Source: an uncultured delta proteobacterium (GTDB lineage Bacteria; Myxococcota_A; Polyangia; Palsa-1104). Taken from it: a DNA stretch of 64,000 nt. The stretch's first letter is position 1. Every line of letters begins with the position of its first letter. The position numbers and the translations under genes were made by a program. The notes beneath the pieces were generated by a model. That model worked only from the letters and a program-made list of their open reading frames with translations. It did not search any database and had not been told where the DNA came from. The DNA lies in NCBI GenBank assembly GCA_963785725.1, contig CAWAWS010000033.1, positions 288,001 through 352,000 on the forward strand, in the 5' to 3' direction. This document shows, piece after piece, positions 1,733 to 49,129 of the stretch.

Positions 1733-4522
1733 TCATGGCGTGGCCACCGGCAGCGTCGCGCCGCCCGACAAGACATACGTGGTCGCTTGCGTGCGCATCG
1801 ACGGGCTCGGCATCTCGGTGAGCAGCGTCGTGTGCACGGCGTCGGCGAAGAAGGTGGAGACGAAGGTGCCGGCGGCGTTCGCGCCTTGCGCGTTGCCGTT
1901 GGCGTCGACGCCGCTGCCGCCCCAGAGCGACAGCGACAGCGCCGCCTCGTATTGCGGCGGCACCGTGGTGTCCATCCCCGCCTCTTGCACGATGGCCAGC
2001 TTCGGCGTGTTGGTCGCGCCGAGCACGTAGGAGAACGACGGCGCGCGCCGAATCAGCCGCCCGACCGAGAACGGATCGGTCGGATCGAGCACCCAGCGCG
2101 CCGTCTGCACCAGCTGCGCGTAGGCGGCCGTCCCGCGCATGATGCCGAGCTGCTGCAAGAGCTGGTCGATGGCGGGATGAAAGTCACCGTCGGAGAGGAT
2201 CTCGAATAGGTGGCCGCCGCCGACGCTGAGCACGTTGGCGCCGTTGATCGACGGGTCGGTGGCGAGGAAGACGGCGCCGTTGATGGCGCCGAGCGAGTGG
2301 CCGATGAAGCTCAAGTGCGCCGCGTCGATGGTGCCGCCGAGGCTGGCCGTCGTCAGGCGCGCTTGCAAGCTGTTGCCGCCCGTCGCCTTGACGACGCGCA
2401 CGAGCTGGGCCGCGTCGACGACGTATTGGAAGCCGCCGGCCCGCCCGCCGAACAAGTTGGCGGGATCGACGTAGCCGTTGCCCGACGCGGCCGGCTCGCA
2501 GTCGTCGGCCAGGTCGCCCGAGAACGCGGCCAGATCGCAGGCGAGCGGGTTGGTCGTGTTGACGGCGAGGCCGGTCGAGCAGACGCCGGTCGTCGTGTCG
2601 CAGCTCCCGGCCGTGGCGCCGGTACATTGGTCGTCGGCGCTACATTTGGTGCGCGCGCCGTGGAAGTCGATGTCGAAGCCGATGGCGGCGCTGCCGCTCG
2701 CCGCCAGATCGTTGGCGAGGACGAAGACGTCGCCGCGCCACGAGGTCAGGCCGTGCTGCGCGATGACCACGGGCGCGCCGCTCGCGCTCGCCGTCTTGGG
2801 CAGCGTCAGCCAGTAGTGCACCGTCGCCGGCAGCGTCGCCGCCGGCGTGACGGTGAAGCTGTCGGCGGCGGGCACGGTCGGCGTCGTCGCCGACGGCTGA
2901 CGCGTGAAATGCACCAGCCGCGTCGTCGGATCATAGATGAGCTGCGTCGTGAAGGTGCCGAGCACGACCGCTCTGACGTTCCCGAGCAGCGCCTGCAGCG
3001 TCACCGGCAGCGCCGAGAAGTCGGTGTACGCCGTCGCCGTCACGTCGGTCGAGAGCGCCGCCGTCGTGGGAAAGGCGTCGAGCGCCGCCAGCGGGCGCGC
3101 GACCGATTGCGTGGTGAAGGTCCACAGGGCGGCGATCGCGCTCGCCGGCAGTCCCTTCGTCTGCAGCTCGCCGAGCAGCGGCGCCAGCGCCAAGCGCAGC
3201 GTCTCGAGCTGCTGGGCCGAGGCGTCGTCGAGCACGCTCACCGTCGAGTGCGTGCCGTCGAAGAGCGGGTTGGGCTGCAGGAGCAGCGCCGTCGCCGGTG
3301 AAGGCACGAAGGGCACGCCGCTCGCGGTGGCGCTGCGCGTGACCACCGCGGCGTAGCGCGACTGATCGGACATCAGCGGCAGCGTCGGAACCAGCGCCAC
3401 CTGGCCGAAGCTGGGCGCCGCGACGAACACCGGCGTCTCGGCGTCGCCGCTCTGGTCGAGCGAGACGAGGAGCGTCGACAGGCCGGGCACGAGCGACGCG
3501 GCGTCGATGGTCGCGCCCGCCACGACGTCGACGGGCAGCGTGATCGCCGCCGACTCGGAGAAGCCATCGAGCGTGTTGAGCTCCATCTTCAGCGCCGCTT
3601 CGGGATCGCCGGCGGCAATCGGCAGCATCACGTTGCCGGTCGATTGGTCGATGAGGACGTCGTTGGGGAACGGGATCGCGTTCGACGTCGGATCGAACTC
3701 GGCCACCGGCTGCGCGGTGATGGTGAAGGTCCAGAAGAGCACGACGTCGTCGCGGTTGCGGCCGGGCGCCACCACCGGCAAGAGCTGCGTCAGCGCCGCG
3801 TCGAGCATCTCGCGCTGCGGCTCGGCCTGGCGCGCCTGCGCGTCCGAGACCCCCGAGAACGACGAGTGGCAGGTGGTATCGCTGGGGTCGGCGATGGCCG
3901 CGGCCGGACAGGCGCAGGCGGGATTGGTCGCATCGGCGCAGCGCACGAGCAGCGGCGTCGGCGAGAGCAAGATGAAGAACGTCGACGACGCCAGCACCAC
4001 CGCGCCGTTGGCGCCCTTGAGGCCGAGCGGGTCGCCGTTGCCGAACAGGAGCGCGGCGTAGCGATGGCCGCTGGTGAAGCGGCTGCCGTCGACAATGTTG
4101 AGCGTCTTGCCGTCGGTCGACAGGGACGCGGTCAGCCCGGTCGCCAACGTCGAGGTGGTCGTGTCGACGAAGATGATCGAGCCCGGCGCCGTCGCCGTCT
4201 GCACGGTCAGCGAGGTCGGATCGAGCGGCGCCGAGAAGGTGGTGCTCGCCGTCGAGCTGGGCGGGAAGCCGGTGAGCGTGCGCAGGTAGGCGTTGAGCGC
4301 CAGCTGCGCCGCCGACTGACCGGGCTCGTCGGGCACGTTGAGGTGCACGCCGTCGCCGCCGACGAACGCGAGGTCGTTCGGCGTCGGCAACACCGGCGGC
4401 GACGCCAGTGGGTCGTAGAGCGCGACCGAGATGTTGGACGTCCCAGGCGGCGCGGCGATCTTTGGCTGACAGCCGCCCCAGACGACTCCGAGCAAGCCGA
4501 GCGAGAGTGAAGCGACACGCAT
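1733..4522 (-). CDS. Secreted lipoprotein lipase (Pla-1/cef-like alpha/beta hydrolase with duplicated N-terminal domain)
   Basis: Lipobox-like VWGGC; two P(T/F)PND motifs; QHGL oxyanion motif; GHSLG nucleophile elbow; directly upstream of fadL. Confidence 0.75.
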   Translation of the reverse strand: MRVASLSLGLLGVVWGGCQPKIAAPPGTSNISVALYDPLASPPVLPTPNDLAFVGGDGVHLNVPDEPGQSAAQLALNAYLRTLTGFPPSSTASTTFSAPLDPTSLTVQTATAPGSIIFVDTTTSTLATGLTASLSTDGKTLNIVDGSRFTSGHRYAALLFGNGDPLGLKGANGAVVLASSTFFILLSPTPLLVRCADATNPACACPAAAIADPSDTTCHSSFSGVSDAQARQAEPQREMLDAALTQLLPVVAPGRNRDDVVLFWTFTITAQPVAEFDPTSNAIPFPNDVLIDQSTGNVMLPIAAGDPEAALKMELNTLDGFSESAAITLPVDVVAGATIDAASLVPGLSTLLVSLDQSGDAETPVFVAAPSFGQVALVPTLPLMSDQSRYAAVVTRSATASGVPFVPSPATALLLQPNPLFDGTHSTVSVLDDASAQQLETLRLALAPLLGELQTKGLPASAIAALWTFTTQSVARPLAALDAFPTTAALSTDVTATAYTDFSALPVTLQALLGNVRAVVLGTFTTQLIYDPTTRLVHFTRQPSATTPTVPAADSFTVTPAATLPATVHYWLTLPKTASASGAPVVIAQHGLTSWRGDVFVLANDLAASGSAAIGFDIDFHGARTKCSADDQCTGATAGSCDTTTGVCSTGLAVNTTNPLACDLAAFSGDLADDCEPAASGNGYVDPANLFGGRAGGFQYVVDAAQLVRVVKATGGNSLQARLTTASLGGTIDAAHLSFIGHSLGAINGAVFLATDPSINGANVLSVGGGHLFEILSDGDFHPAIDQLLQQLGIMRGTAAYAQLVQTARWVLDPTDPFSVGRLIRRAPSFSYVLGATNTPKLAIVQEAGMDTTVPPQYEAALSLSLWGGSGVDANGNAQGANAAGTFVSTFFADAVHTTLLTEMPSPSMRTQATTYVLSGGATLPVATP

Positions 4523-4649
4523 GGCGATTGTTTCAGCGCCGATTCGTGTACGTCAATCGCGTGACCGATTCGAAACACCAAAGTAAGGGACTTACCCTGC
4601 GGGATTCGCGGTAGCCGAGTCGTGGGTGAAGTCGTGCCGAACCGAGCGG

Positions 4650-5363
4650 TTAGACTTCGACTTTCAGCGTCGGCTTCGTGTTGGGGTAGATCTGCTCGAC
4701 GGCCGGTTCGTCGGGACCGGGCTTTTGCATGGCGAACGCATTGACCGGCTGCGATCGATTGATCCAGAGCGCGTAGTACAGATGATCGGACCGCGGGTCA
4801 TCGGTATTCGGATGCAGCAATATCGTCAACCCGAGACTATTGAGCTGCAGCCACGGCACCAGCACCGGCAGCAAATCGTTGGTGAAGCCGAAATAGAATG
4901 ACGGCGTCACGTGCGGACCGCGCGGCTGCAGATTCCAATTGCCGAGCTCGACCAGGAAGCGCTCCGCGACCCACTTACGAATCAGCGCCGCCTTTTCGTA
5001 GCTGTCTTCGTCGAAGTAGACGTGCGCGTGATAGCTCTCGATGTCGGTGTATTTGCGCGGCCGCGCCGGCAGCTGCTGCTCGCCCGGCCTGACGCTCGGC
5101 GGACGCGGCGTCGGCTCCTTGTACGTCTCGTAGCCCCACGGGCTGCGGCCGGGCGCGTGCGGCGGCGCCACGCGCGTCGCGGCCGCCGCGTTCGATCGAC
5201 CGCTCGGCGCTTCGCCGGCGACGGCGGCCCGCGCAGTCGCCGCGCGCGCCAGCGTCAACGCCGCCAAGCCCGCCGTCACCACCTGCCGGCGACTCGGTCC
5301 CAGCCGATCGGCCCAGGCTTGGTCATCGCCGCTCGGCTCGTCCTCTTGCGATCGTTCACTCAT
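4650..5363 (-). CDS. DOPA 4,5-dioxygenase family protein with a Tat-like signal peptide
   Basis: SYHAHVYF...GPH...LLHPNT...DH motifs; N-terminal SRRQVV, hydrophobic stretch and ARA site; start chosen at the ATG at 5363. Confidence 0.75.
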   Translation of the reverse strand: MSERSQEDEPSGDDQAWADRLGPSRRQVVTAGLAALTLARAATARAAVAGEAPSGRSNAAAATRVAPPHAPGRSPWGYETYKEPTPRPPSVRPGEQQLPARPRKYTDIESYHAHVYFDEDSYEKAALIRKWVAERFLVELGNWNLQPRGPHVTPSFYFGFTNDLLPVLVPWLQLNSLGLTILLHPNTDDPRSDHLYYALWINRSQPVNAFAMQKPGPDEPAVEQIYPNTKPTLKVEV

Positions 5364-5383
5364 CGGCGTTATCGCTGGCGGCG

Positions 5384-5965
5384 CTAGCTGGCGCGGCCGA
5401 CGGCGGTGGCGCGCTCGACCTCGATGAGCCGGCCGCTCTCGACCTGGTAGACGTAGCCGTAGATGGGGATGGCGCGCGGCACCAGCGGATGATTGCGGAT
5501 GCGCTCGACGTCGGTGGTGACGCTCTCGGCCTGCTCGCGGATGGTGAGCCAGTCGATGTAGTCGCCTTGGCGCGAGCCGGGACCGGCGCCGACGTCGCGC
5601 CACTGCTTGCCGTCGTGCTGCGCCGTGTGCAGGCTGGACGCGAGCAGGCCGCGGATGATCTCGTCGCTGAACAGCTCCATGCCGCAGCTCGAGTGATGAA
5701 TGACGAACCACTCCTTCGTGCCCAAGAGCTTGTGCGAGATGACGAGCGAGCGGATGGCGTCGTCGCTGGCGCGGCCGCCGGCGTTGCGGATGACGTGCGC
5801 GTCGCCCTCGGCGAGGCCGGCGTATTTGGCCGGATCGAGGCGCGCGTCCATGCAGGTCAAGATGGCGAAGCCGCGCGCCGGCGGCAGCGCCAGCTTGCCC
5901 TTGTCGCCGAACTCGGACGCGTAGCGCGCGTTGGCCTTCAAGACGTCTTCGCGAATCTGGCTCAT
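5384..5965 (-). CDS. Beta-class carbonic anhydrase (clade D-like)
   Basis: [15 protein letters not shown] and HHSSCGM zinc-ligand motifs; GAGGAG RBS. Confidence 0.92.
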
Positions 5966-6001
5966 CGATTCCTCCTCGAGCGTGGACGGTTGGCGATCAG
6001 T

Positions 6002-6074
6002 TGGCGGCCCCTTCCGGGATTCGAACCCGGCTCGACGGTTTTGCAGACCACGCCATCCCAGATGGCAAGGAGCC
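6002..6074 (-). tRNA. Atypical tRNA with GCA (Cys) anticodon, G73 discriminator and encoded CCA
   Basis: GGCTCCTT GCCATC TGG GATGGC GTGGT CTGCAAA ACCGT CGAG CCGGG TTCGAAT CCCGG AAGGGGCC G CCA folds into a cloverleaf with a canonical T-arm and anticodon loop. Confidence 0.8.
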
Positions 6075-6086
6075 AGAGTGTCTTCG

Positions 6087-6182
6087 TTACGACTGCGACT
6101 CGTGACGCTGCGCGATCGCCAGCAGCACGAGGTGGAACAACACGATGCCGAAGCCGAGCGTGTAGTCGACGACGCGGCTCAT
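6087..6182 (-). CDS. 31-aa hydrophobic small protein ([31 protein letters not shown])
   Basis: ATGA overlap with the upstream stop; one TM-like segment; GC3-rich codons; below the ORF-track cutoff. Confidence 0.55.
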
Positions 6183-6505
6183 CGGGCGGCGCCCGCCGCC
6201 GCTATCGGCGCGACGTCCATGCCCGCGAGGATCGCCGCCAGTCGCGCCGGGCTGCAGCGTCGATAGAGCACGACCGGCACGCCGTGAGCGCGCGCCGCTC
6301 GCCGCGCGACGTGCACGGCGCCGTGGCTGTTGACGTCGGTGACGACGATGAGAAAGTCGACGCCGCGCGCCAGCAGATCGAGCGTGTTGCTGCCGCGTCC
6401 GCCGATGTGGCCCGAGTGAAAGGCGATCGAGTGCCCGCTACGCTCGGCGATCTCGCGATAGAGCGACTCGGTCCGTTCGACGCCGCCGACAATACCGATT
6501 CGCAT
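6179..6505 (-). CDS. DUF2325-like small Rossmann-fold protein
   Basis: MRIGIVGG...DFLIVVTDVNSHGAV...ARAHGVPVV pattern. Confidence 0.75.
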   Translation of the reverse strand: MRIGIVGGVERTESLYREIAERSGHSIAFHSGHIGGRGSNTLDLLARGVDFLIVVTDVNSHGAVHVARRAARAHGVPVVLYRRCSPARLAAILAGMDVAPIAAAGAAR

Positions 6506-6508
6506 AGA

Positions 6509-6895
6509 TCACCAGTGCCAAACCTGCTCGTAGCCTTCGAGCAGCTCGGCGAACGCGTGCGCGGCGATCGGCGTCGGTCCGTCGATGATCTCGTCGCGGG
6601 CGATGCCGCGCCGTTTCGCGTCATCCTCGACGTAGAACACGCGCACGCCTTTGTCGCCGAGCCGGCGCACGTCGTCGGCGAGCCGCGGCGGCTGCGTTTG
6701 CCGGCGTTCCCCGAAGGCGAGCCCGCTCGCGTCCTGATCGCGCACGACGTAATTGACCGCGTTGCCGCGCAGGAGCACGTCGGTGTCGGCGCCATTGCCG
6801 CGCAGCGACGTCACCAGCCACAAGACCGGATCGTCCTGCTCCTCGAGCGTCGCGCGATAAGCGGTCTCGACGATCTGCAAAATCTTCTTCGACAT
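6509..6895 (-). CDS. DsrE-superfamily protein (DsrH/TusB-like)
   Basis: VLLRGNAV and VFYVEDDAKRRGI motifs; GGAG RBS. Confidence 0.7.
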   Translation of the reverse strand: MSKKILQIVETAYRATLEEQDDPVLWLVTSLRGNGADTDVLLRGNAVNYVVRDQDASGLAFGERRQTQPPRLADDVRRLGDKGVRVFYVEDDAKRRGIARDEIIDGPTPIAAHAFAELLEGYEQVWHW

Positions 6896-6904
6896 GACGG
6901 CTCC

Positions 6905-7318
6905 TTACTTCGTGGGAATGACGAGCGTGTTGACCGAAGCCGCGACGAACTTGGCGAGGTCGGCGGGGCTGCCGCGGCGCGTGCCGGCGACCGCTTCGGC
7001 GACGCCGCGCTCGTCGACGCACAGGCCGCAGTTGACCCAATCGACTGTGACGGCGCGCGTCTCGGCCTCGGCGAGGATGGCGGCGATCCAATCCTTCGTC
7101 GTCGGATGATCTTCGAGGGCGGCGTCGCGGCCGTGCACGGCGTTGGCGTGCGGCGTCTGCTTGACGAACGGCAGCGCCACGGCGCCTTCGTAAGCGAAGA
7201 CGTTGACGTCGAAGCCGCGCTTGACGGCACGATCGATGAGGCGCAGCGCCGTCGTCGTGCGCGCGTTCTCGTAAGGCGGATCATTGAGCACGAACGTCAG
7301 CGATTGCTTGGTCGACAT
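6905..7318 (-). CDS. DsrE/TusD-like sulfur-relay protein with Cys motif
   Basis: LNDPPY, VFAYEGAV and VNCGLCVDERG (Cys aligned with the TusD persulfide Cys region). Confidence 0.8.
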   Translation of the reverse strand: MSTKQSLTFVLNDPPYENARTTTALRLIDRAVKRGFDVNVFAYEGAVALPFVKQTPHANAVHGRDAALEDHPTTKDWIAAILAEAETRAVTVDWVNCGLCVDERGVAEAVAGTRRGSPADLAKFVAASVNTLVIPTK

Positions 7319-7327
7319 CTTGTCCTC

Positions 7328-7654
7328 CTAATGCCAGAGCGTCGTGTGGCCGGCGGCGAGCCGATCGATGACCGCGTCGAGGTCCGCCGGCGTGATGGCG
7401 GACGCCAGCCGTCCGGCGTGGATGCCGCGCTCGCGCAGCGAGAAGTCGTCGGCGAGGATCGCGACGCCGCTCGCGCGCAGCTCGTCGAGCACGCTCGATT
7501 CGGCCTGTGCGCGCGCCGGCAGCACGCCGTTCTGCACGAGGAAGAACGTCACCTCGTGCCGCTTGCGCGCCAGCGTCGCCGCCAGCCGATAGAAGTAATT
7601 GTCGTCGCCGGACTCGAAGGGATCGCGCGATTCGATCAGCAAATACTTGGCCAT
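7328..7654 (-). CDS. DsrE-superfamily protein (DsrF/TusC-like)
   Basis: SRDPF, VTFFLVQNGV and SLRERGI motifs; AGGAGGAG RBS. Confidence 0.75.
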   Translation of the reverse strand: MAKYLLIESRDPFESGDDNYFYRLAATLARKRHEVTFFLVQNGVLPARAQAESSVLDELRASGVAILADDFSLRERGIHAGRLASAITPADLDAVIDRLAAGHTTLWH

Positions 7655-7673
7655 CAGCTCCTCCTACGAAACG

Positions 7674-7707
7674 AAAAAAGCCCGCCGGCGGGTGCGCGCG
7701 GCGGGCT
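7674..7707 (-). terminator. Intrinsic terminator/attenuator upstream of the DsrE operon
   Basis: AGCCCGCCG-N11-CGGCGGGCT followed by a T-run, between the leader ORF and the first gene. Confidence 0.85.
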
Positions 7708-7726
7708 CGGATGCAGCAAATCGCAA

Positions 7727-7804
7727 CTAAGGAACGGCGATCGGCGGCCCGGTGCCCGCACGTGCGCGACAACATCCCGCGCTGTCCATCGCCATCCGTT
7801 TCAT
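7727..7804 (-). CDS. Cys-Cys attenuator leader peptide 1 (MKRMAMDSAGCCRARAGTGPPIAVP)
   Basis: 25 aa with tandem TGT TGT codons; ATG 6 nt after the -10 box (leaderless-like); terminator follows. Confidence 0.75.
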   Translation of the reverse strand: MKRMAMDSAGCCRARAGTGPPIAVP

Positions 7805-7810
7805 AAGACG

Positions 7811-7839
7811 ACTATCCGTTATAACGGACGCGCTGTCAA
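7811..7839 (-). promoter_or_regulatory. Sigma70-type promoter overlapped by the perfect palindrome TCCGTTATAACGGA (7815-7828)
   Basis: TTGACA (7839-7834), 17-bp spacer, GATAGT (7816-7811). Confidence 0.7.
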
Positions 7840-8288
7840 GGGCGTAAATAGCGCCACTTCTTCTCCGGCTTGCCGTGCTTGCCGCGGCGATCGGTCGTCC
7901 AGCCGCTGCAGGCGGACATGTGCTTGAAGACATCGGCGGGATCGGCCAAACGATCGGGCACGATGGGCTCGCTGCACAGCCAGCAGATCGTGACCTCGGC
8001 CGCCTCTTCGGCGACGCGCCTGGGGCCTTTGACGGCGACGCGCAGCACGAGCTTGGCGCGCCGCAAGTGCTCGAGCGCGATCCTCGCCGCGCCGGATTCG
8101 AGCGTGCCCAGCCGAATCTCCTCGGCGACGCGGCGCTCGGTGTCGCGCAACGCGTCCAGCGAGGTCGGCACCTCGGCGCCTTGGCGCGCGACGCCCGCGT
8201 CCTCCGCGACCCGCTCGGCGAGCGGCGCCGATCGTTCCGCCGCGAGCAGTTGCGGCACTCCCAAGCGGCGTTGCTGAAGCATGCCCAT
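7836..8288 (-). CDS. Hypothetical protein with C-terminal C-x2-C...H-x3-C Zn-finger-like motif and basic tail
   Basis: CWLC...FKHMSAC; AGGAG RBS; immediately downstream of attenuator 2. Confidence 0.6.
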   Translation of the reverse strand: MGMLQQRRLGVPQLLAAERSAPLAERVAEDAGVARQGAEVPTSLDALRDTERRVAEEIRLGTLESGAARIALEHLRRAKLVLRVAVKGPRRVAEEAAEVTICWLCSEPIVPDRLADPADVFKHMSACSGWTTDRRGKHGKPEKKWRYLRP

Positions 8289-8321
8289 GACCGTTCTCCT
8301 GACAAAGTCGCAAACGTGCGT

Positions 8322-8363
8322 AAAAGCAAAAAGCCCACCGACCCTCGCGGGCTGGTGGGCTTT
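8322..8363 (-). terminator. Intrinsic terminator/attenuator 2
   Basis: AAAGCCCACC-N14-GGTGGGCTTT followed by TTGCTTTT. Confidence 0.85.
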
Positions 8364-8381
8364 GGACCGCGTTCAGCGTCC

Positions 8382-8456
8382 TTAACAGCGCGCTGACGGA
8401 CCGTCGCCCATGCATCGCCGACAACACGTCGCGCGGTCGATGATCGGGCAACCCAT
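8382..8456 (-). CDS. Cys-rich attenuator leader peptide 2 (MGCPIIDRATCCRRCMGDGPSARC)
   Basis: 24 aa with 5 Cys; D7, A9, C11, C12, R13, G17, G19 and P20 at the same positions as in leader 1; terminator follows. Confidence 0.78.
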   Translation of the reverse strand: MGCPIIDRATCCRRCMGDGPSARC

Positions 8457-8462
8457 CCTTCG

Positions 8463-8492
8463 CTTTTATCCGTTATTGCGGATGAATGTCAA
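8463..8492 (-). promoter_or_regulatory. Promoter with TTGACA -35 box and TCCG-N6-CGGA operator (8469-8482)
   Basis: TTGACA at 8492-8487; same architecture as the promoter at 7811-7839; -10 box less clear. Confidence 0.6.
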
Positions 8493-8541
8493 ATCCGTGC
8501 ACTTTCCCGGCCGATTTGCGGGAATTGCGCGAGCGTCATCG

Positions 8542-8555
8542 TCCGCTATTACGGA
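8542..8555. promoter_or_regulatory. Third TCCG-N6-CGGA operator-like site
   Basis: TCCGCTATTACGGA. Confidence 0.5.
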
Positions 8556-8640
8556 TGCCGATACGAAGCGTTAGCTGCAAGCGAGGGAATGGTCGAGCAG
8601 GGACGGCTGGGACAATCGGCGCGCAGTGGCGCGCGCGGCG

Positions 8641-9804
8641 CTATTTGAAGTTCGTCTTGATGACGAGCGCGCTCTTCGTCGTGTCCACGAAGTCCATGAC
8701 GATGGCGCCGTAGCGTCCGAACGTGTTGGCCGTGAAGTAGCTCGTCACCTTGGGGTTGATGACGTCGGAGACGCTGGGAATGTTCTCGAGCCCGCCGTCC
8801 GCGTCCTCATAGGCGCTCGTATGATTGATGTAGAGCTCGGTCATGCTGCCGGCCGGCGCTTCGGTCAATAGGCCGGAAATCGCCGTCCACTTCGCGTCAT
8901 CGTCGGGGACGTCGTAATAGTCCTGAATGCGCAGCTGCGCATTCCCATTGTCGATCGTGAAGGTCGTGTTGTCGGACCACACGGTGGCGTCGAGCCCTTT
9001 CGGCGTCGTGGTGGCGCTGAAGCGTCGCAAGAGCACGATCTTGCCGCGCACCGTGTCCAGCGTCGGGATGGTCGCGCCGAGATACCAGCGCTCCGGATGC
9101 TGCGCCGTATACGTGTCGAAGGTCTGCTCGAACGTGTTCGTCGATCCCGACTCCGGCTGCTCCTCTTTGACGCTCATGATGATCGCCTCGGTCGGATTGG
9201 CGGCGAGGAAGTCGTAGACGTTCTGCAGCACGGTCGCGAAGCTCAAGTTTTGATAGACCGTCAAATGATAGATATCGAATTGGTTATTCACATTTCGCGT
9301 GCGGATATCGAAATAGCGAATGCCCGCCGTCAGCTGATCGGGGACCGCCAGGTTCTGCGTCTTGGTCGCGCCGGCGACGTTCTCGAACAGCGCGCCCGTG
9401 TCGTGGCTCCCGGGAATCGACAGCGCCGCCAAGCTCGTCGCTCCGGGAATCGCGCCCAGCCAATTCGAACCGGTATAGGGCGGCGCCAGGTCGGTCGGCA
9501 CGACGGCCATGTCCGCCGGCGCGGCGTCGCTGGCGGCCGGATCGGCCGGCGCGGCGTCATCGACGACGACCATGTCGCCGACGCCCGCGCTCAGGTCGGG
9601 CACGCCGGCGTCGGTGGCGACGGACTGGTCGCGCCCGACGTCGAGATCGTGCGGGCTCGTGGCCAGGTCACCGAGGTCGTTCGACGACGACGAATTCCCG
9701 CAGCCGGCGACGGCGAGCGCGAGCGCGACGAACCTGGAGGCGGTCAGAATGTGCCGAGCAGCGGCGCGAGTCATGCGAGCCTTTGGCGTTGGATCATCCG
9801 CCAA
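8641..9804 (-). CDS. Phosphatidylinositol-specific phospholipase C (PI-PLC X domain) lipoprotein
   Basis: LSIPGSHDTGA, QLTAGIRYFDIR, IYH and RGKIVLLRRF motifs; VAGC lipobox. Confidence 0.88.
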   Translation of the reverse strand: MADDPTPKARMTRAAARHILTASRFVALALAVAGCGNSSSSNDLGDLATSPHDLDVGRDQSVATDAGVPDLSAGVGDMVVVDDAAPADPAASDAAPADMAVVPTDLAPPYTGSNWLGAIPGATSLAALSIPGSHDTGALFENVAGATKTQNLAVPDQLTAGIRYFDIRTRNVNNQFDIYHLTVYQNLSFATVLQNVYDFLAANPTEAIIMSVKEEQPESGSTNTFEQTFDTYTAQHPERWYLGATIPTLDTVRGKIVLLRRFSATTTPKGLDATVWSDNTTFTIDNGNAQLRIQDYYDVPDDDAKWTAISGLLTEAPAGSMTELYINHTSAYEDADGGLENIPSVSDVINPKVTSYFTANTFGRYGAIVMDFVDTTKSALVIKTNFK

Positions 9805-10027
9805 CGCTACTATTCTTGCCCCGTCGTTTGCGAGTCATACGTGACGAGCTTGGCTCTCTTTCGCGGTGCCGCGCCTCGCGCAGATCAGCGAGCGCGCCGC
9901 GCGACGCGAGCGCCGCGTGCGAACACCGAGCTCAGGAAACGTATGTTCGGCCACGGACGCGCGCGCGCGCACCGAGAACGGCCCGTGGCGGAGTCGGTAT
10001 CATGGCGCGACGGAGAAGGAGAGCGGC

Positions 10028-10528
10028 ATGACACCTCAGCGGCGTGGCCCGGCCATCATCGAGCTCCCGAACGATCTCGAGATCGTCATTGCGCGAGAGC
10101 TCGCGGCGCCGCTCCCACTCGTCTTCGACGTGCTGACGAAGCAGGAGCATCTGCTCAAGACCATCGCGCCATTCAGGGAGCGCGTGAGAGTGTGCTCAGT
10201 CGACCTGCGTGTGGGCGGGAAGTACCACTTCGTGTTCGTGACCGAAGACGGAATCGAGTGCTCGTTTCGTGGCACCTACTTGGAAGTCGAGCCGCCGACC
10301 CGGACCGTCCAGACGTGGCGGTTCGACGGGTGGCCGGATGCAGAGGCCGTCGAGACGCAGGCGCTTCGCGAAGCCGACGGCGTGACGACCTTGACGTGGA
10401 CGCTGGCCTTCCGCGACAAGGCCGGCCGTGCCCGCATGACCAAATTCGATGGCCCCGAGGCGAACTTGGACAAGGTCGAAGATCTCTTGATGTCGTTGCT
10501 CGATCCCGAGGGAATGGATTCCGGGTAA
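10028..10528 (+). CDS. SRPBCC/AHSA1-like domain protein
   Basis: VDLRVGGKYHF...FRGTYLEVEPPTRTVQTW. Confidence 0.85.
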   Translation: MTPQRRGPAIIELPNDLEIVIARELAAPLPLVFDVLTKQEHLLKTIAPFRERVRVCSVDLRVGGKYHFVFVTEDGIECSFRGTYLEVEPPTRTVQTWRFDGWPDAEAVETQALREADGVTTLTWTLAFRDKAGRARMTKFDGPEANLDKVEDLLMSLLDPEGMDSG

Positions 10529-11191
10529 TCGCGCTTCGGCTCAGACATCGACTGCAGGCATGAAGGTGCGCGCCGCGTTCCTGTAGAGCATTCGCTGGTA
10601 GACGGCCGCGCTCGTCGGCGTGGCCAACGCGCTCACCCAGTGGTCAGCCTGCTCACGCTCGCCGCCGTCGTCGCCGCCGCGCGCGTTCGCCCGCCCGGCA
10701 CGACCGCTCGCCCCACTCCCGCCCGCTGAGCTCAGCGTCGTCGACTTCGATGGCGCGTCCATGCTCGGCCCACTCCGCGTCGTGATCTCGATCGGCTAAG
10801 GCCACGTCACCTCGCGTCGGCTCATCGGAGCGGTCTCGACTGGCGTCCGCAGGAAGTGTGAATGCGCGCGTGCGATCGCCAGTGAGTGAATGCACTCGAC
10901 CGCGCCGCTGAACGTGACTCAGCGCAAACGGACCGCGTGTGCAATCACATGTTGCTAACAAAGCTACGGACGCAACTCGAAGAGTTGCCGTCGCGACTAC
11001 ACCCGAATTGCGGCGCGCGCAGATAGCGGCGGAACGGCCATTGCAGTCGCCGTCGCGCGCGGAGGAGGGCGCGCGCAGAACGCCTGCGCGGCGGACACGG
11101 GAGCGACAGTCCGGCTGCCGCAGCTCGTGCAAAGCGTCGCTCGCGCGACCCGTCCTCTTCTTGAACGGCTGCAACACAACTTGGAGCGCTG

Positions 11192-12472: not shown

Positions 12473-12658
12473 ATGAAAGACGTGAAGGACGAACTGAAGA
12501 AGCTGAGCAACGAGGCGCTGGCGAGCGTTCGCGGCGGTACCGTCACGCTGCGTCCGCCGTCGCTCGGCGGAGTCGGCGGCGGCAGCGCGCTTCTTTGCGG
12601 CGGCGATGCCATGGCCGAGAGCTGCGTTGCCATCATCCACATCCCCGCCAAGCAGTAA
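12473..12658 (+). CDS. Putative RiPP precursor with double-glycine leader
   Basis: GGAGGA RBS; MKDVKDELKKLSNEALASVRGG leader; core has 2 Cys; 11 bp upstream of the radical SAM gene. Confidence 0.75.
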   Translation: MKDVKDELKKLSNEALASVRGGTVTLRPPSLGGVGGGSALLCGGDAMAESCVAIIHIPAKQ

Positions 12659-12669
12659 GGAGTAGCCAC

Positions 12670-14145
12670 ATGTCCTCGAAGATCGCTGGCGCCTATCAGA
12701 CGTCTCGTTACAACTTCTTCGTACCGACGATCGAGGCGACGCTGCTTTACAACTCGCTCCACGGAAGCGTCGTCGGTCTGGGCTCGGCGCAAGCGGCCAA
12801 GCTTGCTTCGGCGCTGGCCAAGCCGGGCGTCGCGGTCTTCGAGGATGATCTACCACCCGAGCTGTTCTTGCAGCTCAGCGAAGGGCACTTCGTCGTCCCG
12901 CCGGGAACGGACGAGCTGGCGCTCATCAAAGAGCGCTTTCGCAAGGCGCGCAATGACGCGCCGGCGATTCTGACGATTACGACGACCATGGATTGCAACC
13001 TCGGCTGCTACTACTGTTATGAAGAGCGCTCCGGCGATCAGCTGACCCAGCAAGGCGATCTGGAAGCGCTCGTGGCCGAGGCGCGGCGCCTCGTGACGCG
13101 GCAAAACAAGACGACGCTGCATGTCGATTGGTATGGCGGCGAGCCGCTCCTGAACGTCGAGTTTCTCGAGGTGGCGTCGGCGCGTCTGTGTGCGCTCGCC
13201 GATGAGCTCGGCGTGCATTACGAGGCGTCGATCCTGACCAACGGCACCTGTTGGCCGGAGGATGTGGGCGCCTTCGTGGCGCGACATCGCATCGTCCGCG
13301 TGCAGATTCCGTTCGATGGGCTCAAGGAGAATCACGACAAACGAAGGCATTATCGCAAGGGTTATGCGCCTTCGGAGGACGCGTCGAGCTTCGAGCTGGC
13401 CGCCGCGCTCGTCGGAAAGCTGCTCGACCACACGCGCGTCGACATCCGCTGCAATATCGATCGTTCCAACGGCTCGGACTTTGTCGGGCTGATTCGCTTT
13501 GCACGCGAGCAGGGCTGGTTCGACAAGCGCTTCGCCGCGGTCATTCAACCGGCGCGCTTGACGAAATACTCCGAGCACACGTCGTTCATGCACAAGGCCG
13601 AGCTCGTTCGCAGCGACTTCGACACCGTTCGAGAGGAGATCGAGCGCGCGGTTCCCACGCATGTCGAAGTGCAAAACTCGAAAGTAGCGGCGTTTCCCGA
13701 GCCGCGCTTCTCGGTCTGCGCGGCGCTCAATGAAGATGCCGTCGTCGTCGGCGCCAATGGCTCGCTCTATCGCTGTGGCTTGCAGGTGGGCGAAAAGCAC
13801 CGCGTCGTCGGCGAGCTTCATGGCGCCGCGGCCAAACCGGACAACAAGCGCCATTTACCGCTTCTCGGCGCCGCCGGTAATGACGTCGAATTCTGGCGCA
13901 CATTCGATCCGACGGAGCGCCCGCGCTGCTCGGCCTGCACGTTCTTGCCGATCTGTTGGTCGGGTTGCCCCAAGGTGCATCTCGAAGGCGACGCACTGGC
14001 GATCGCACGGCAAGGCGAATACTGGCGCACCAACCTTCCGCGGCAGGTCGCCAACGGGCTCGGGCTTACGCTCGACGGAGAGTACGCGTTTTCGGCGCAA
14101 GACCAGTTCCCGGATGGCGAGCCCGAGACCCTCTCGCACTCGTAA
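12670..14145 (+). CDS. Radical SAM/SPASM peptide maturase
   Basis: CNLGCYYC, WYGGEPLL and SPASM CSACTFLPICWSGC; N-terminal SRYN...LLYNSLHG RRE-like region. Confidence 0.9.
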   Translation: MSSKIAGAYQTSRYNFFVPTIEATLLYNSLHGSVVGLGSAQAAKLASALAKPGVAVFEDDLPPELFLQLSEGHFVVPPGTDELALIKERFRKARNDAPAILTITTTMDCNLGCYYCYEERSGDQLTQQGDLEALVAEARRLVTRQNKTTLHVDWYGGEPLLNVEFLEVASARLCALADELGVHYEASILTNGTCWPEDVGAFVARHRIVRVQIPFDGLKENHDKRRHYRKGYAPSEDASSFELAAALVGKLLDHTRVDIRCNIDRSNGSDFVGLIRFAREQGWFDKRFAAVIQPARLTKYSEHTSFMHKAELVRSDFDTVREEIERAVPTHVEVQNSKVAAFPEPRFSVCAALNEDAVVVGANGSLYRCGLQVGEKHRVVGELHGAAAKPDNKRHLPLLGAAGNDVEFWRTFDPTERPRCSACTFLPICWSGCPKVHLEGDALAIARQGEYWRTNLPRQVANGLGLTLDGEYAFSAQDQFPDGEPETLSHS

Positions 14146-14427
14146 CGTGCGCTGAAGACATAGTCCCGCCCATTCTCCGCGACGTCTCGAGTCGAATCCT
14201 CACGACAGCAGATCAGCGCCGTCCTGCAATTCAGTGCAAACGCGCGGCGGCGGCCGTGTGACCTATCGGTGCGACAAATCGCCGCAGGAATGGAATGCAA
14301 TCGTTTATCGGCTAGTCCGAGCGATCGATTGCCTCGACGGCGTGATCTGGACACACCGAGGTTGCGCCAAGTCATCGACAGCTCTCCCTCGCATACGTCA
14401 TCGTCGCGCGCAAAGGAGACTCCCCCC

Positions 14428-14982
14428 ATGACTAACGCAGTATCCCGCAATCGTATTCTCGGTATCGTCGGCACCTTGGTGCTGGCCGGCCTCGCCAGCG
14501 GCTGCACCTCCGGCGTGCTCGTCGACGAGAACTTCGACACCATCACCGATTCGCGCACGGCCAACGCGTCGGTGACGTTCCAGGAGCTGGGTTCGAACCT
14601 CTTGCCCAACGGCACCGAGTACACCTTCAACCTCAACCACCAGCCGTACATCTCGTTCGACGGGTTCCAGGCCGATGGCGCCACGACGTCCAAATACCCG
14701 GGCCTCGTGAACAGCGGGCATGTCATTCCGAACGGCAACTACCGGGTCGAGTTCTTCCAGCCCCAGGTCGGCTTTGCTTACTCGCCGCGCTTCACGCACT
14801 CGTACGCCAACCCGGGCACCTGCACCGATACCTTCTCCGGCGAGAGCGACGGCGACTGTGCGGTGTACTACTTCGAGCTGAACTACAACTGCCCGGTCTG
14901 CACCGGCTCGAGCTGCGGCGGCATCCAGACGCTGCCGACGCACAACGGCTTCCCGGTCATCGATATGTGCGTGTCCTTCTAA
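14428..14982 (+). CDS. Cys-rich lipoprotein, function unknown
   Basis: AAGGAG RBS; LASGC lipobox; six C-terminal Cys. Confidence 0.7.
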   Translation: MTNAVSRNRILGIVGTLVLAGLASGCTSGVLVDENFDTITDSRTANASVTFQELGSNLLPNGTEYTFNLNHQPYISFDGFQADGATTSKYPGLVNSGHVIPNGNYRVEFFQPQVGFAYSPRFTHSYANPGTCTDTFSGESDGDCAVYYFELNYNCPVCTGSSCGGIQTLPTHNGFPVIDMCVSF

Positions 14983-48325: not shown

Positions 48326-49129
48326 TCAGTCGCGCCAGCTGACGACGAGCGCGCCGGATTTGGGCGCCTCGAGCGTGATCATCGGCGCGCCACCGCCTTC
48401 GCGATACGGTCCTTCTTTGGCTCCGGCCGGGCTCGCCGCGCAGCGACCGAGCACGACGACCTCGGCGCCCAGCCGCAGCGCCGTCTCGGCATACCGCAGC
48501 TGCCGCGGCACGACCAAGAGGAAGCGCGAACGGCCATGGACTTTACGCAGCCAGCGCTTCTGCCGCTCGCCCGCATCGGCGACGCCGCGCGGCTCGGCGA
48601 CGAGCTCGGCGCGGTCGACGCGCACGAGCGCCACGCCGCTCTCGTCGCGAACGCGAAAGTCGAGCGCCTGCTTCTCGCGTCGATAGGGCGTGAAGCTTCC
48701 CGGTCCGTTTCGCTGCTGGTCGTGGATCTGGACGTGGGTGACGAATGCGAGCGCGCGCTGCCCGGTCAAAGGCGCTTCGAGCAGCAGCGCATCGCTCACG
48801 TCCGCCCCGTCCGCCGCGATGGCCTCGACGCGCCCGGCAATCTTGACGACCGCGCCCGGCTTCACGTCGGCGATTCGCACCGTCGGCAAGCGGTCGAGGC
48901 GACGGCGATGACGCCAATCGCGGGTCTTGGTCCAGCCGCGCGACCAGGCGATCGACCCCAGGCTCGAGCCGAGGCTCAGCGCCACGCCCACGAGCACGCT
49001 CGCCACGACCGCGCCATCCGTCAACGGCCGCCGCCTTGGCGCGCGCACAGCTGTCCCTCGACCGACGCGGAAGCTCGCATGCCTCCATTTTATACGACGA
49101 GCGGCGGCAGCACCGATGATCGCCGTCAC
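48326..49129 (-). CDS. Membrane-anchored GIDE-like (MUL1-type) domain protein; start uncertain
   Basis: TM, then VKIAGRV, LEAPLTG, FRVRDESG and RYAETAL..G..VVVLG. Confidence 0.5.
   Translation of the reverse strand: MTAIIGAAAARRIKWRHASFRVGRGTAVRAPRRRPLTDGAVVASVLVGVALSLGSSLGSIAWSRGWTKTRDWRHRRRLDRLPTVRIADVKPGAVVKIAGRVEAIAADGADVSDALLLEAPLTGQRALAFVTHVQIHDQQRNGPGSFTPYRREKQALDFRVRDESGVALVRVDRAELVAEPRGVADAGERQKRWLRKVHGRSRFLLVVPRQLRYAETALRLGAEVVVLGRCAASPAGAKEGPYREGGGAPMITLEAPKSGALVVSWRD

Follow-up and report, generated by a model that had tools for sequence, protein, structure and literature searches.

Predicted leaderless cysteine attenuators and a non-canonical tRNA(GCA) under a candidate sulfur-starvation operator in Polyangia

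In the Rhodobacterales, an upstream open reading frame (uORF) named uORFC-8-2 precedes cysS and combines tandem cysteine codons with an intrinsic terminator; read-through upon ribosome stalling has been proposed for it in the accessible part of the report (Brewer et al., 2021; PMC8632094). The mycobacterial leader Ms5788A acts on translation through sequestration of a Shine-Dalgarno sequence, and its authors excluded transcription termination, as far as the available portion of that article goes (Canestrari et al., 10.1101/834739). Candidate cys leaders of Actinobacteria carry runs of Cys codons for which no terminator hairpins were found, and Rho-dependence was suggested, in the sections of the paper open to us (Seliverstov et al., 2005; PMC1262725). 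Here, we analyze 64,000 nt from an uncultured member of the Polyangia (lineage Palsa-1104; assembly GCA_963785725.1, contig CAWAWS010000033.1, positions 288,001 to 352,000; hereafter the window), which encode two short open reading frames (ORFs) with paired Cys codons, each followed by an intrinsic terminator. We report that these ORFs are genuine leaders, and estimate at roughly four chances in five that they act as classical ribosome-run transcription attenuators sensing charged tRNA-Cys, under operator-bearing promoters of a predicted sulfur-starvation regulon. One of them lies upstream of a non-canonical tRNA with a GCA anticodon.

The Polyangia leaders resemble uORFC-8-2 in that a short uORF carries two Cys codons in tandem ahead of an intrinsic terminator. 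However, uORFC-8-2 prefers UGC and usually has its Cys pair at codons 14-15, whereas the Polyangia leaders use UGU and their run ends at codons 10-12; uORFC-8-2 controls cysS in another phylum, with no demonstrated sequence relation, whereas the Polyangia leaders would control sulfur-scavenging genes and a tRNA, and are leaderless and under a DNA operator. With the mycobacterial polycysteine leaderless short ORFs (LL-sORFs) they share leaderless starts and consecutive Cys codons before sulfur genes, two Cys being sufficient according to the available portion of that work; unlike Ms5788A, they carry a strong intrinsic terminator and an antiterminator. The actinobacterial cys leaders likewise have Cys-codon runs in short upstream ORFs, whereas the Polyangia leaders come with terminators. 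The likeness to trp- and his-type attenuators extends to regulatory codons, a kinetic choice between antiterminator and terminator and, as in trp, an upstream repressor (10.1101/834739, available portion); here, in contrast, Cys is sensed, and a leader deprived of its start codon is predicted to read through and not to show super-attenuation. Our literature search, with most subscription journals outside it, gave no description of myxobacterial Cys attenuators, and the accessible parts of PMC13236596 and PMC4833913 hold nothing on myxobacteria. A preliminary description of this DNA, which pointed to actinobacterial precedents and called the tandem pair unusual, had overstated the novelty, since a Cys-Cys uORF with an intrinsic terminator was already predicted in Rhodobacterales (PMC8632094, accessible part). 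It also passed over the operator with its wider sulfur regulon, and the non-canonical tRNA under leader 1.

Leader peptide 1 (7727..7804; minus strand, as for every window feature below unless noted) has 25 amino acids (aa) with Cys11-Cys12, and leader peptide 2 (8382..8456) has 24 aa with Cys at positions 3, 11, 12, 15 and 24. An ORF check and shuffle folding bear out both ORFs, their TGT TGT and the terminators downstream as first described. Intrinsic terminator 1 (7674..7707; 5' arm GCCCGC at 7706-7701) folds at −25.4 kcal/mol (z −3.9) and intrinsic terminator 2 (8322..8361; 5' arm GCCCA at 8360-8356) at −26.1 kcal/mol (z −5.3); for each, none of 200 shuffles equalled the native energy. Codons 11-12 are TGT TGT in both ORFs, rightly called unexpected in such GC-rich DNA: in the host genome (8.9 Mb, 67.9% G+C), TGT makes up 13% of Cys codons (1,552/11,668 in 2,878 long ORFs), and 3 of the 141 Cys-Cys pairs in long ORFs are TGT TGT. 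Cys-rich short ORFs do arise by chance, because a relaxed genome scan, used as a chance control, placed one before 36 of 620 hairpin-plus-U sites; among these 36, only leaders 1 and 2 follow an operator-bearing promoter. Elsewhere in the host, Leu/Ile/Val-rich short ORFs precede intrinsic terminators on contigs C6 (about 206550-206650, minus) and C39 (about 628090-628160, minus), possible branched-chain amino acid attenuators.

Both leaders follow sigma-70-type promoters with the palindrome TCCG-N6-CGGA in the spacer between −35 and −10. Promoter 1 (7811..7839) comprises a −35 box TTGACA at 7839-7834, which overlaps the stop of a 150-aa ORF, the operator TCCGTTATAACGGA at 7828-7815 and a −10 box GATAGT at 7816-7811. 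The ATG of leader 1 lies 6 nt beyond this −10 box, so that the leader is leaderless by geometry, in agreement with the preliminary description. For promoter 2 (8465..8492), with TTGACA at 8492-8487, the operator at 8482-8469 in the spacer and a −10 region at about 8470-8465, we infer activity from a match to the promoter pattern at positions 296467-296492 of the contig; a further, auxiliary copy of TCCG-N6-CGGA lies upstream (8542..8555, palindromic). Leader 2 is most likely leaderless as well. Contigs from four soil sequencing runs span both leaders and the tRNA, and 40 of their 700 differences were read; the base before the ATG of leader 2 (position 8457) differs in these relatives, so its AAGG is improbable as a ribosome-binding site. 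Among the differences listed, position 8437 changes D7 of leader 2 to G. The two leaders do not form a serial double attenuator, each having its own promoter and its own first gene.

The family has four members: leaders 1 and 2, a metagenomic homologue (L170) and one from a genome of the same genus (G003, locus L238). L170, which has three Cys, is a clear orthologue of leader 1; its terminator lies 47 nt past the stop, and orthologous dsrE-like genes follow. Its upstream gene is unrelated to that upstream of leader 1, from which we take the tandem leaders of the window to be a local duplication. G003/L238 has promoter, operator, ATG, TGT TGT and terminator, and precedes a DUF2325 gene. The RNA model used for L238 spanned the Cys region to the U-tract and started two codons before the Cys pair, downstream of promoter and start codon; the promoter, operator and ATG of L238 are therefore independent confirmation. 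Both homologues keep start, Cys-Cys run, antiterminator arm and terminator, and thus the conservation of Cys-Cys in orthologous leaders to which the preliminary description had tied its proposal. TGT TGT is used by all four leaders, against the 13% TGT background. Of the residues first aligned between leaders 1 and 2, Cys-Cys, Arg and Gly are kept in the homologues and D7 and A9 are not; N-terminal residues and lengths vary. Common to the four is C-C-R-x-x-[A/M]-G-x-G-[P/S], with the second Gly encoded by GGG, GGG, GGT and GGA and the residue after it Ser in G003 and Pro elsewhere. The D7 codon of leaders 1 and 2 takes part in a 5' hairpin, where its partner is the Cys-Arg junction.

Codons 16-17 of the window's leaders complement the 5' arms of their terminators, as initially proposed: GCGGGC (7759-7754) in leader 1 can pair with GCCCGC and TGGGC (8410-8406) in leader 2 with GCCCA, with one compensated pair (C-G versus U-A). 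In all four leaders, an arm G/U-G-G-G-C/U starts four codons past the last Cys of the run, which stands at codon 12 in leaders 1 and 2 and at codon 10 or 11 in the homologues, and pairs with GCCC of a terminator located 47-51 nt past the leader stop. In 4/4, the partners of the G-x-G bases are the terminator 5' arm and a CC upstream of it, within a long irregular antiterminator hairpin of −24 to −34 kcal/mol. We folded the nascent RNA with the ribosome at each codon, protecting 16 nt from the P site and assuming no pairing across the ribosome. The antiterminator has a probability of 0.93-1.0 up to the last Cys and ≤0.39 one codon further on in every leader, and the last A-site codon that permits it is the last Cys in 4/4, with 16- and 18-nt footprints alike. 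Across the four leaders, 31/32 antiterminator and 35/36 terminator cells are paired. Ribosome-free folding predicts the antiterminator in three of four leaders, and hence read-through of a leader that is left untranslated. Because the layout is kept in two independent homologues and the switch register coincides with the Cys codons, attenuation is likely.

We propose an XRE-cupin regulator as the protein that occupies TCCG-N6-CGGA in the spacer between −35 and −10; shortage of sulfur would open the promoter. Transcription would begin at or next to the leader AUG, where a ribosome loads; the geometry for this is seen directly, and translation is expected from it. With Cys-tRNA scarce, the ribosome is predicted by folding to wait at the rare UGU codons, leaving codons +4/+5 free to close the hairpin with the terminator's 5' arm while its 3' arm is still to be transcribed, which would allow read-through. 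With ample Cys, the ribosome is predicted to cover the arm and the inner hairpin, and the terminator to form. Leader 2 would gate the 150-aa gene, and leader 1 a triad of DsrE-like genes, a DUF2325 gene, the non-canonical tRNA, a beta-carbonic anhydrase (beta-CA) gene and a dioxygenase gene. The peptide sequence itself would be needless for the switch.

Several observations weigh against this interpretation. The register depends on the footprint, the switch coming a codon later with 13-15 nt and a codon earlier with 19 nt, and equilibrium folding favors the terminator in all ribosome states folded for leader 1, leader 2 and L170 (P 0.73-0.99); read-through would thus have to be kinetic. In folds that let bases on either side of the ribosome pair with each other, leader 1 and L170 are predicted to retain the outer antiterminator helix even with the ribosome at the stop codon. 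In leader 2, a ribosome stalled at Cys15 or Cys24 would cover the arm and thereby favor termination. Covariation across the four sequences is not significant (213/500 shuffles for the antiterminator, 33/500 for the terminator); the initial proposal of Cys attenuation draws its support from homologue conservation and switch register. The link between XRE-cupin proteins and the operator is one of co-location. The family is also narrow: beyond G003, the order's 41 other genomes yielded no further member (40 genomes), nor did a 150-genome sample of the class or the 17 pattern-positive of 147 genomes of another order, and 0 of 82 DsrE triad loci in other genomes combined an operator with a Cys-Cys leader and a terminator inside 400 nt, a scan of triads that left out locus L030, where the first gene has no match. 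Weak matches of the leader model within the order were tmRNA or ordinary terminators, and two in-frame Cys-Cys matches in the other order were discarded as GC-rich pseudo-operators with neither a −35 box nor a U-run.

A metagenome scan for operator-ATG-TGYTGY returned 51 loci, 22 of them with a −35 box, of which two are Cys leaders (L170 and L159). In 16 of these 22 the gene is presumably that of a sulfate-binding protein, a name we take from its motif, and TGYTGY is out of frame; in-frame matches that lacked a −35 box were dropped as chance. L159 (minus strand, about 170-265 of the reversed locus) is a four-Cys leaderless ORF behind the same operator promoter and before an SBP_bac_11 gene; its terminator is weak (−15.9 kcal/mol, P(term) ≤0.38), and we do not count it as a member of the family.

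An improbable alternative is that the operator controls small RNAs or small Cys-rich peptides ending at a constitutive terminator, with the downstream genes expressed by leaky read-through. The strength of the terminators, which win at equilibrium, would suit such transcripts, as would the five Cys of leader 2, two of them badly placed for attenuation. However, a promoter scan of the stretch from terminator to first gene gave no second promoter, an arm complementary to the terminator at a fixed +4 codons would be purposeless, and neither N-terminal residues nor lengths are conserved. Less probable still are arrest peptides, an idea that the preliminary description had raised for G-x-G-P. Here C-C-R-x-x-A-G-x-G-P would stall the ribosome on sensing a ligand or thiol state, at G-P-P rather than at the Cys codons: the motif persists in four leaders while its second Gly codon varies and Pro-Pro can pause ribosomes, but a ribosome at codons 17-21 would cover the antiterminator arm and so cause termination instead of read-through, the first two bases of both Gly codons are paired in the predicted hairpin (4/4), so that RNA pairing accounts for them, the Pro becomes Ser in G003, and the conserved rare TGT points to sensing at the codon level. 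Between leader 1 and L170, third codon positions are identical in 7/8 across G-T-G-P-P-I-A-V.

The promoter behind which the leaders sit is itself part of a wider pattern. TTGAC-N5/6-operator occurs four times in the host genome and is present in 8 of 350 other genomes of the class, with 0 matches to a reversed control. This pattern contains no ATG, yet of the 11 loci that it returned from other genomes, 9 have their next start codon 8-11 nt past the operator, a spacing that leaves no space for a Shine-Dalgarno sequence; the leader ATGs, 8 and 10 nt past theirs, conform to these ordinary genes, for which the geometry indicates that the operator promoter is leaderless too. Genes behind or beside the operator encode the Pfam families Sulf_transp, SBP_bac_11, NMT1, TauD, rhodanese and porin O/P, with Bac_luciferase accompanied by a sigma-54 activator and, nearby, SrpI encapsulin and a class-V aminotransferase. 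The operator of genome G004 precedes a gene that we take from its sequence to be cysD. TCCG-N6-CGGA is therefore predicted to mark sulfur-scavenging genes across Polyangia as a sulfur-starvation regulon. Our search of the literature, to which most subscription journals lay outside, gave no description of this operator among the matches listed.

XRE-cupin genes adjoin operator copies on host contig C2 (55675-55049), on C17 (a cupin part) and at several other loci, and their products are likely regulators of the operator. They share HTH_3 plus cupin with E. coli SutR and PuuR, their genes being operator-flanked and beside sulfur genes; PuuR is the best NCBIfam match, below cut-off, and SutR has a role in sulfur use. 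At L185 (about 1535-1700, plus) and L194, a conserved leaderless ORF of ~52 aa with the motif I-V-x-L-D-[DE]-Y-R-R sits between the operator promoter and the XRE-cupin gene. Host contig C17 (1-8000; L006) holds a paralogous operator locus with a DsrF-like fragment, DUF2325, porin O/P and five operator copies, and tandem repeats at about 2700-3150 near the 3' end of the cupin gene. On host contig C15, an operator promoter at 65344-65500 (plus) precedes Sulf_transp, with a possible GTG-started ORF containing a Cys pair; no terminator was seen there, and the ORF may be chance or a translational variant. The same contig carries nine GC-richer TCCG-N6-CGGA palindromes clustered at 375214-375957, probably a repeat element rather than operators.

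The tRNA under leader 1 (6002..6074) has a GCA anticodon, a probable 8-pair acceptor and a 5-pair T stem, G73 and an encoded CCA. It combines a one-base linker, a 4-pair D stem, a 5-nt D-loop (CUGGG) that lacks A14 and a variable loop of 3-4 nt; in the acceptor-T branch, an extra base on the 3' side can pair with U8. We found eight copies: that of the window, one in metagenome L132 and six among the 147 genomes of another order (L187-L192). The eighth acceptor pair (U-A) forms in 8/8 and never varies, the alternative fold being 7 pairs plus a bulged A. The GCA anticodon, the D-arm with its loop GG, the T stem and T-loop and G73 are invariant in all eight, and pairing in the acceptor stem is complete (100%), two of its pairs being compensated, in copies that are kin and not independent. 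CCA is encoded in 6/8; base 33 is C in 2/8, and the anticodon stem is irregular (87.5% paired). A covariance model built from the eight gives 99-105 bits to the seven genomic copies and ≤47 to its next matches, while the Rfam tRNA-Sec model gives the window's copy 32.6 bits against a gathering score of 47.

BLASTN over 301 genomes of the class returned canonical tRNAs and chance matches only; 150 genomes of the phylum, 41 of its own order and plasmids gave no match, and three tRNA patterns run over viral contigs found one unrelated tRNA. The host has two further tRNA-Cys genes, both with U73, and one cysteinyl-tRNA synthetase (CysRS). Canonical U73 tRNA-Cys is kept by 7/7 genome carriers, which makes the unusual tRNA an accessory one, and CysRS is single in the 6/6 carrier genomes examined. 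The operator promoter lies upstream of the tRNA at five of eight loci (window, L215, L216, L217 and L219), with a degenerate operator at L217 and a tRNA that begins about 20 nt past the promoter at L219; of the remaining loci, one shows a degenerate palindrome and two lie at contig ends, adjoining regulon genes. Hydrophobic or Arg-tailed ORFs of 21-31 aa adjoin the tRNA, after it in L188, L189 and L190 and at 6182-6087 in the window, where the possible 31-aa hydrophobic ORF (6087..6182, minus) overlaps the DUF2325 stop.

Myxococcus phage Mx1 carries the closest relative, a tRNA(GCA) within its tRNA cluster (L236:1497-1568, corresponding to OR576727.2 about 48887-48958) that lacks annotation and over whose 5' end a hypothetical CDS is annotated. 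This relative has the same D-arm, U73 and 7 acceptor pairs with a one-base linker, which favors the 8/5 over the bulged-A fold for the Polyangia copies. The simplest history would be one in which a tRNA-Cys of phage type acquired an additional pair and G73 and the sulfur regulon then recruited it. Arrays with compact irregular Trp, Thr and Asn tRNAs, with C-Y-G-G-G D-loops, occur at host C3:124966-129345, C39:626782-627456 and L233; their tRNA-Trp resembles the unusual tRNA in D-arm and anticodon arm.

Among described tRNAs, selC* tRNA-Cys has an 8/4 fold, U73 and a long variable arm, allo-tRNAs are 8/4 or 9/3 with a long arm, and tRNA-Sec with a GCA anticodon is 8/5 with G73 and a long arm (PMC5389517, PMC7609411, accessible parts). 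Together with tRNA-ProX, these share with the Polyangia tRNA a longer acceptor (probable in the latter), hybrid identity, accessory status and possible deliberate mistranslation. In contrast to selC*, allo-tRNA and tRNA-Sec, it has no long arm, a 5-nt D-loop and a link to a sulfur operator, and it fits none of the groups in the accessible parts of PMC5389517, PMC7609411 and PMC11415595. We found no description of it in the literature, with most subscription journals and the supplements outside the search, among them those of PMC5389517, which list irregular tRNAs. No partner synthetase or SelB gene was seen nearby, among the part of the ORFs scanned in the flanking regions. U73 and GCA are the main identity elements of CysRS (PMC5389517, PMC8762117, accessible parts), and because it has G73 at this position the tRNA is probably no normal Cys tRNA.

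Tentatively, and by a narrow preference, we favor a role in which the tRNA would carry an amino acid other than Cys, with Ser as the best guess, attached by a housekeeping synthetase, and would decode UGC/UGU in sulfur starvation. Hungry Cys codons would then be passed and the leader attenuator re-closed, a negative feedback. The invariant anticodon, T-loop, D-loop GG and G73, the CCA of 6/8 copies and the fully paired acceptor are consistent with such a function, as are the absence of U73, a CysRS identity element (PMC5389517, PMC8762117, accessible parts), the accessory place beside canonical tRNA-Cys and the operator promoter at five of eight loci; the mistranslating tRNA-ProX is likewise deviant at base 33, according to the available text of PMC11415595. 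However, the long variable arm required by seryl-tRNA synthetase (SerRS) is absent, an 8-pair acceptor stem weakens EF-Tu binding in tRNA-Sec (both PMC7609411, accessible part), and C33 in 2/8 copies with an irregular anticodon stem suggests that decoding is under weak selection. In six flanking regions, some of whose ORFs were scanned, no synthetase came to light. A SerRS-like paralogue was rejected as partner: it is an amino acid-[acyl carrier protein (ACP)] ligase, present in one of six other carriers and also in non-carriers. In the host, this ligase (C14:195070-196340, minus; L222) has an N-terminal extension matching methanogen-type SerRS models and adjoins an ACP gene in a polysaccharide cluster.

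It is also possible, at slightly longer odds, that the tRNA is an unchargeable decoy that would bind CysRS or enter the A site at Cys codons, and would thereby spare free cysteine for cofactors or amplify the stringent response. G73 and a probable 13-pair acceptor branch would block normal use, and this combination is fixed in 8/8 copies and absent from the Mx1 relative. However, uncharged tRNA-Cys already accumulates in starvation, leaving the gain unclear, and an encoded CCA in 6/8 copies fits aminoacylation. At the same odds, the tRNA may be a Cys tRNA that the single CysRS still charges, as additional supply in starvation, or an RNase P/Z processing signal in the operon mRNA. A tRNA-Cys is sensible in a Cys-starvation operon, the tRNA lies inside operons at most loci, and some methanogens pair G73 tRNA-Cys with a changed CysRS (PMC8762117, accessible part); but the one CysRS per genome (6/6) must serve U73 tRNA, and a processing signal would not need an invariant anticodon. 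Joining the first of these readings to the phage history, we offer as a speculative scenario, with rather long odds, that Polyangia domesticated a phage-type tRNA-Cys, lengthening its acceptor and turning U73 into G73, as a starvation-only tRNA that would place another amino acid at Cys codons. In this genome it would be attenuator-gated and self-limiting, since it would relieve the very stalls at Cys codons that switch it on.

The predicted operon of the tRNA also contains protein-coding genes. Three DsrE/DsrF-like genes (6509..7654; 7654-7328, 7318-6905 and 6895-6509) all match Pfam PF02635 above cut-off and are predicted to form a sulfur relay; the triad scores far below the TusD, TusC and TusB equivalog cut-offs (16-18 versus 49-89 bits), and such triads are widespread across phyla. 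The DUF2325 protein that follows (6179..6505) is a recurrent member of the operator regulon. Beyond the tRNA lies the beta-CA gene (5384..5965; Pfam PF00484), of the group that includes carbonyl sulfide (COS) and CS2 hydrolases. Its PDB matches include 3vqj, a carbonyl sulfide hydrolase (E 5e-29), and 3ten, a CS2 hydrolase (E 4e-25), and plain beta-CAs outscore both; a homologue stands directly behind the operator promoter in L182. A DOPA 4,5-dioxygenase-family gene (4650..5363; Pfam PF08883) is the probable end of the operon, in which no terminator-like site of note was found except a short hairpin inside DUF2325. Rfam gave no family at gathering score in 4000-11000.

The 150-aa protein under leader 2 (7836..8288) has a helical hairpin and a conserved C-x2-C...H-x3-C, likely a zinc site. 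Six homologues were found, one labelled Polyangia bacterium, in keeping with the apparent myxobacterium of the preliminary description, and Pfam, NCBIfam, Atlas (best 0.86) and PDB folds gave no match, Foldseek having been run on a weak model (pLDDT 58). A DksA/TraR-like identity, suggested by a C-x2-C...I...RL...P pattern, was dropped for lack of Pfam, NCBIfam, Atlas or Foldseek support. The protein was absent from a search of 41 other genomes of the order, and a metagenome scan with its alignment confirmed 0 of 214 candidates. Elsewhere in the window, a radical SAM gene with a Cys-rich C-terminus (12595-14145, plus) and a secreted-looking ORF (14269-14982, plus) make up a possible locus of the RiPP (ribosomally synthesized and post-translationally modified peptide) type.

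Taken as attenuators, the leaders add a myxobacterial, leaderless, intrinsic-terminator form of cysteine attenuation under an apparently undescribed sulfur operator. The tRNA weighs more, since it bears on how translation goes on under cysteine exhaustion, and for this 73-nt tRNA gene the 7-pair U73 phage relative is a natural control. Few systems are known to mistranslate specific codons deliberately, and in the literature compared none of these is linked to a nutrient regulon. If the scenario of a starvation-only tRNA is true, Polyangia would rewrite the genetic code when a nutrient runs short, in a self-limiting manner that spares sulfur, and even as a decoy the tRNA would be a new class of regulatory tRNA.

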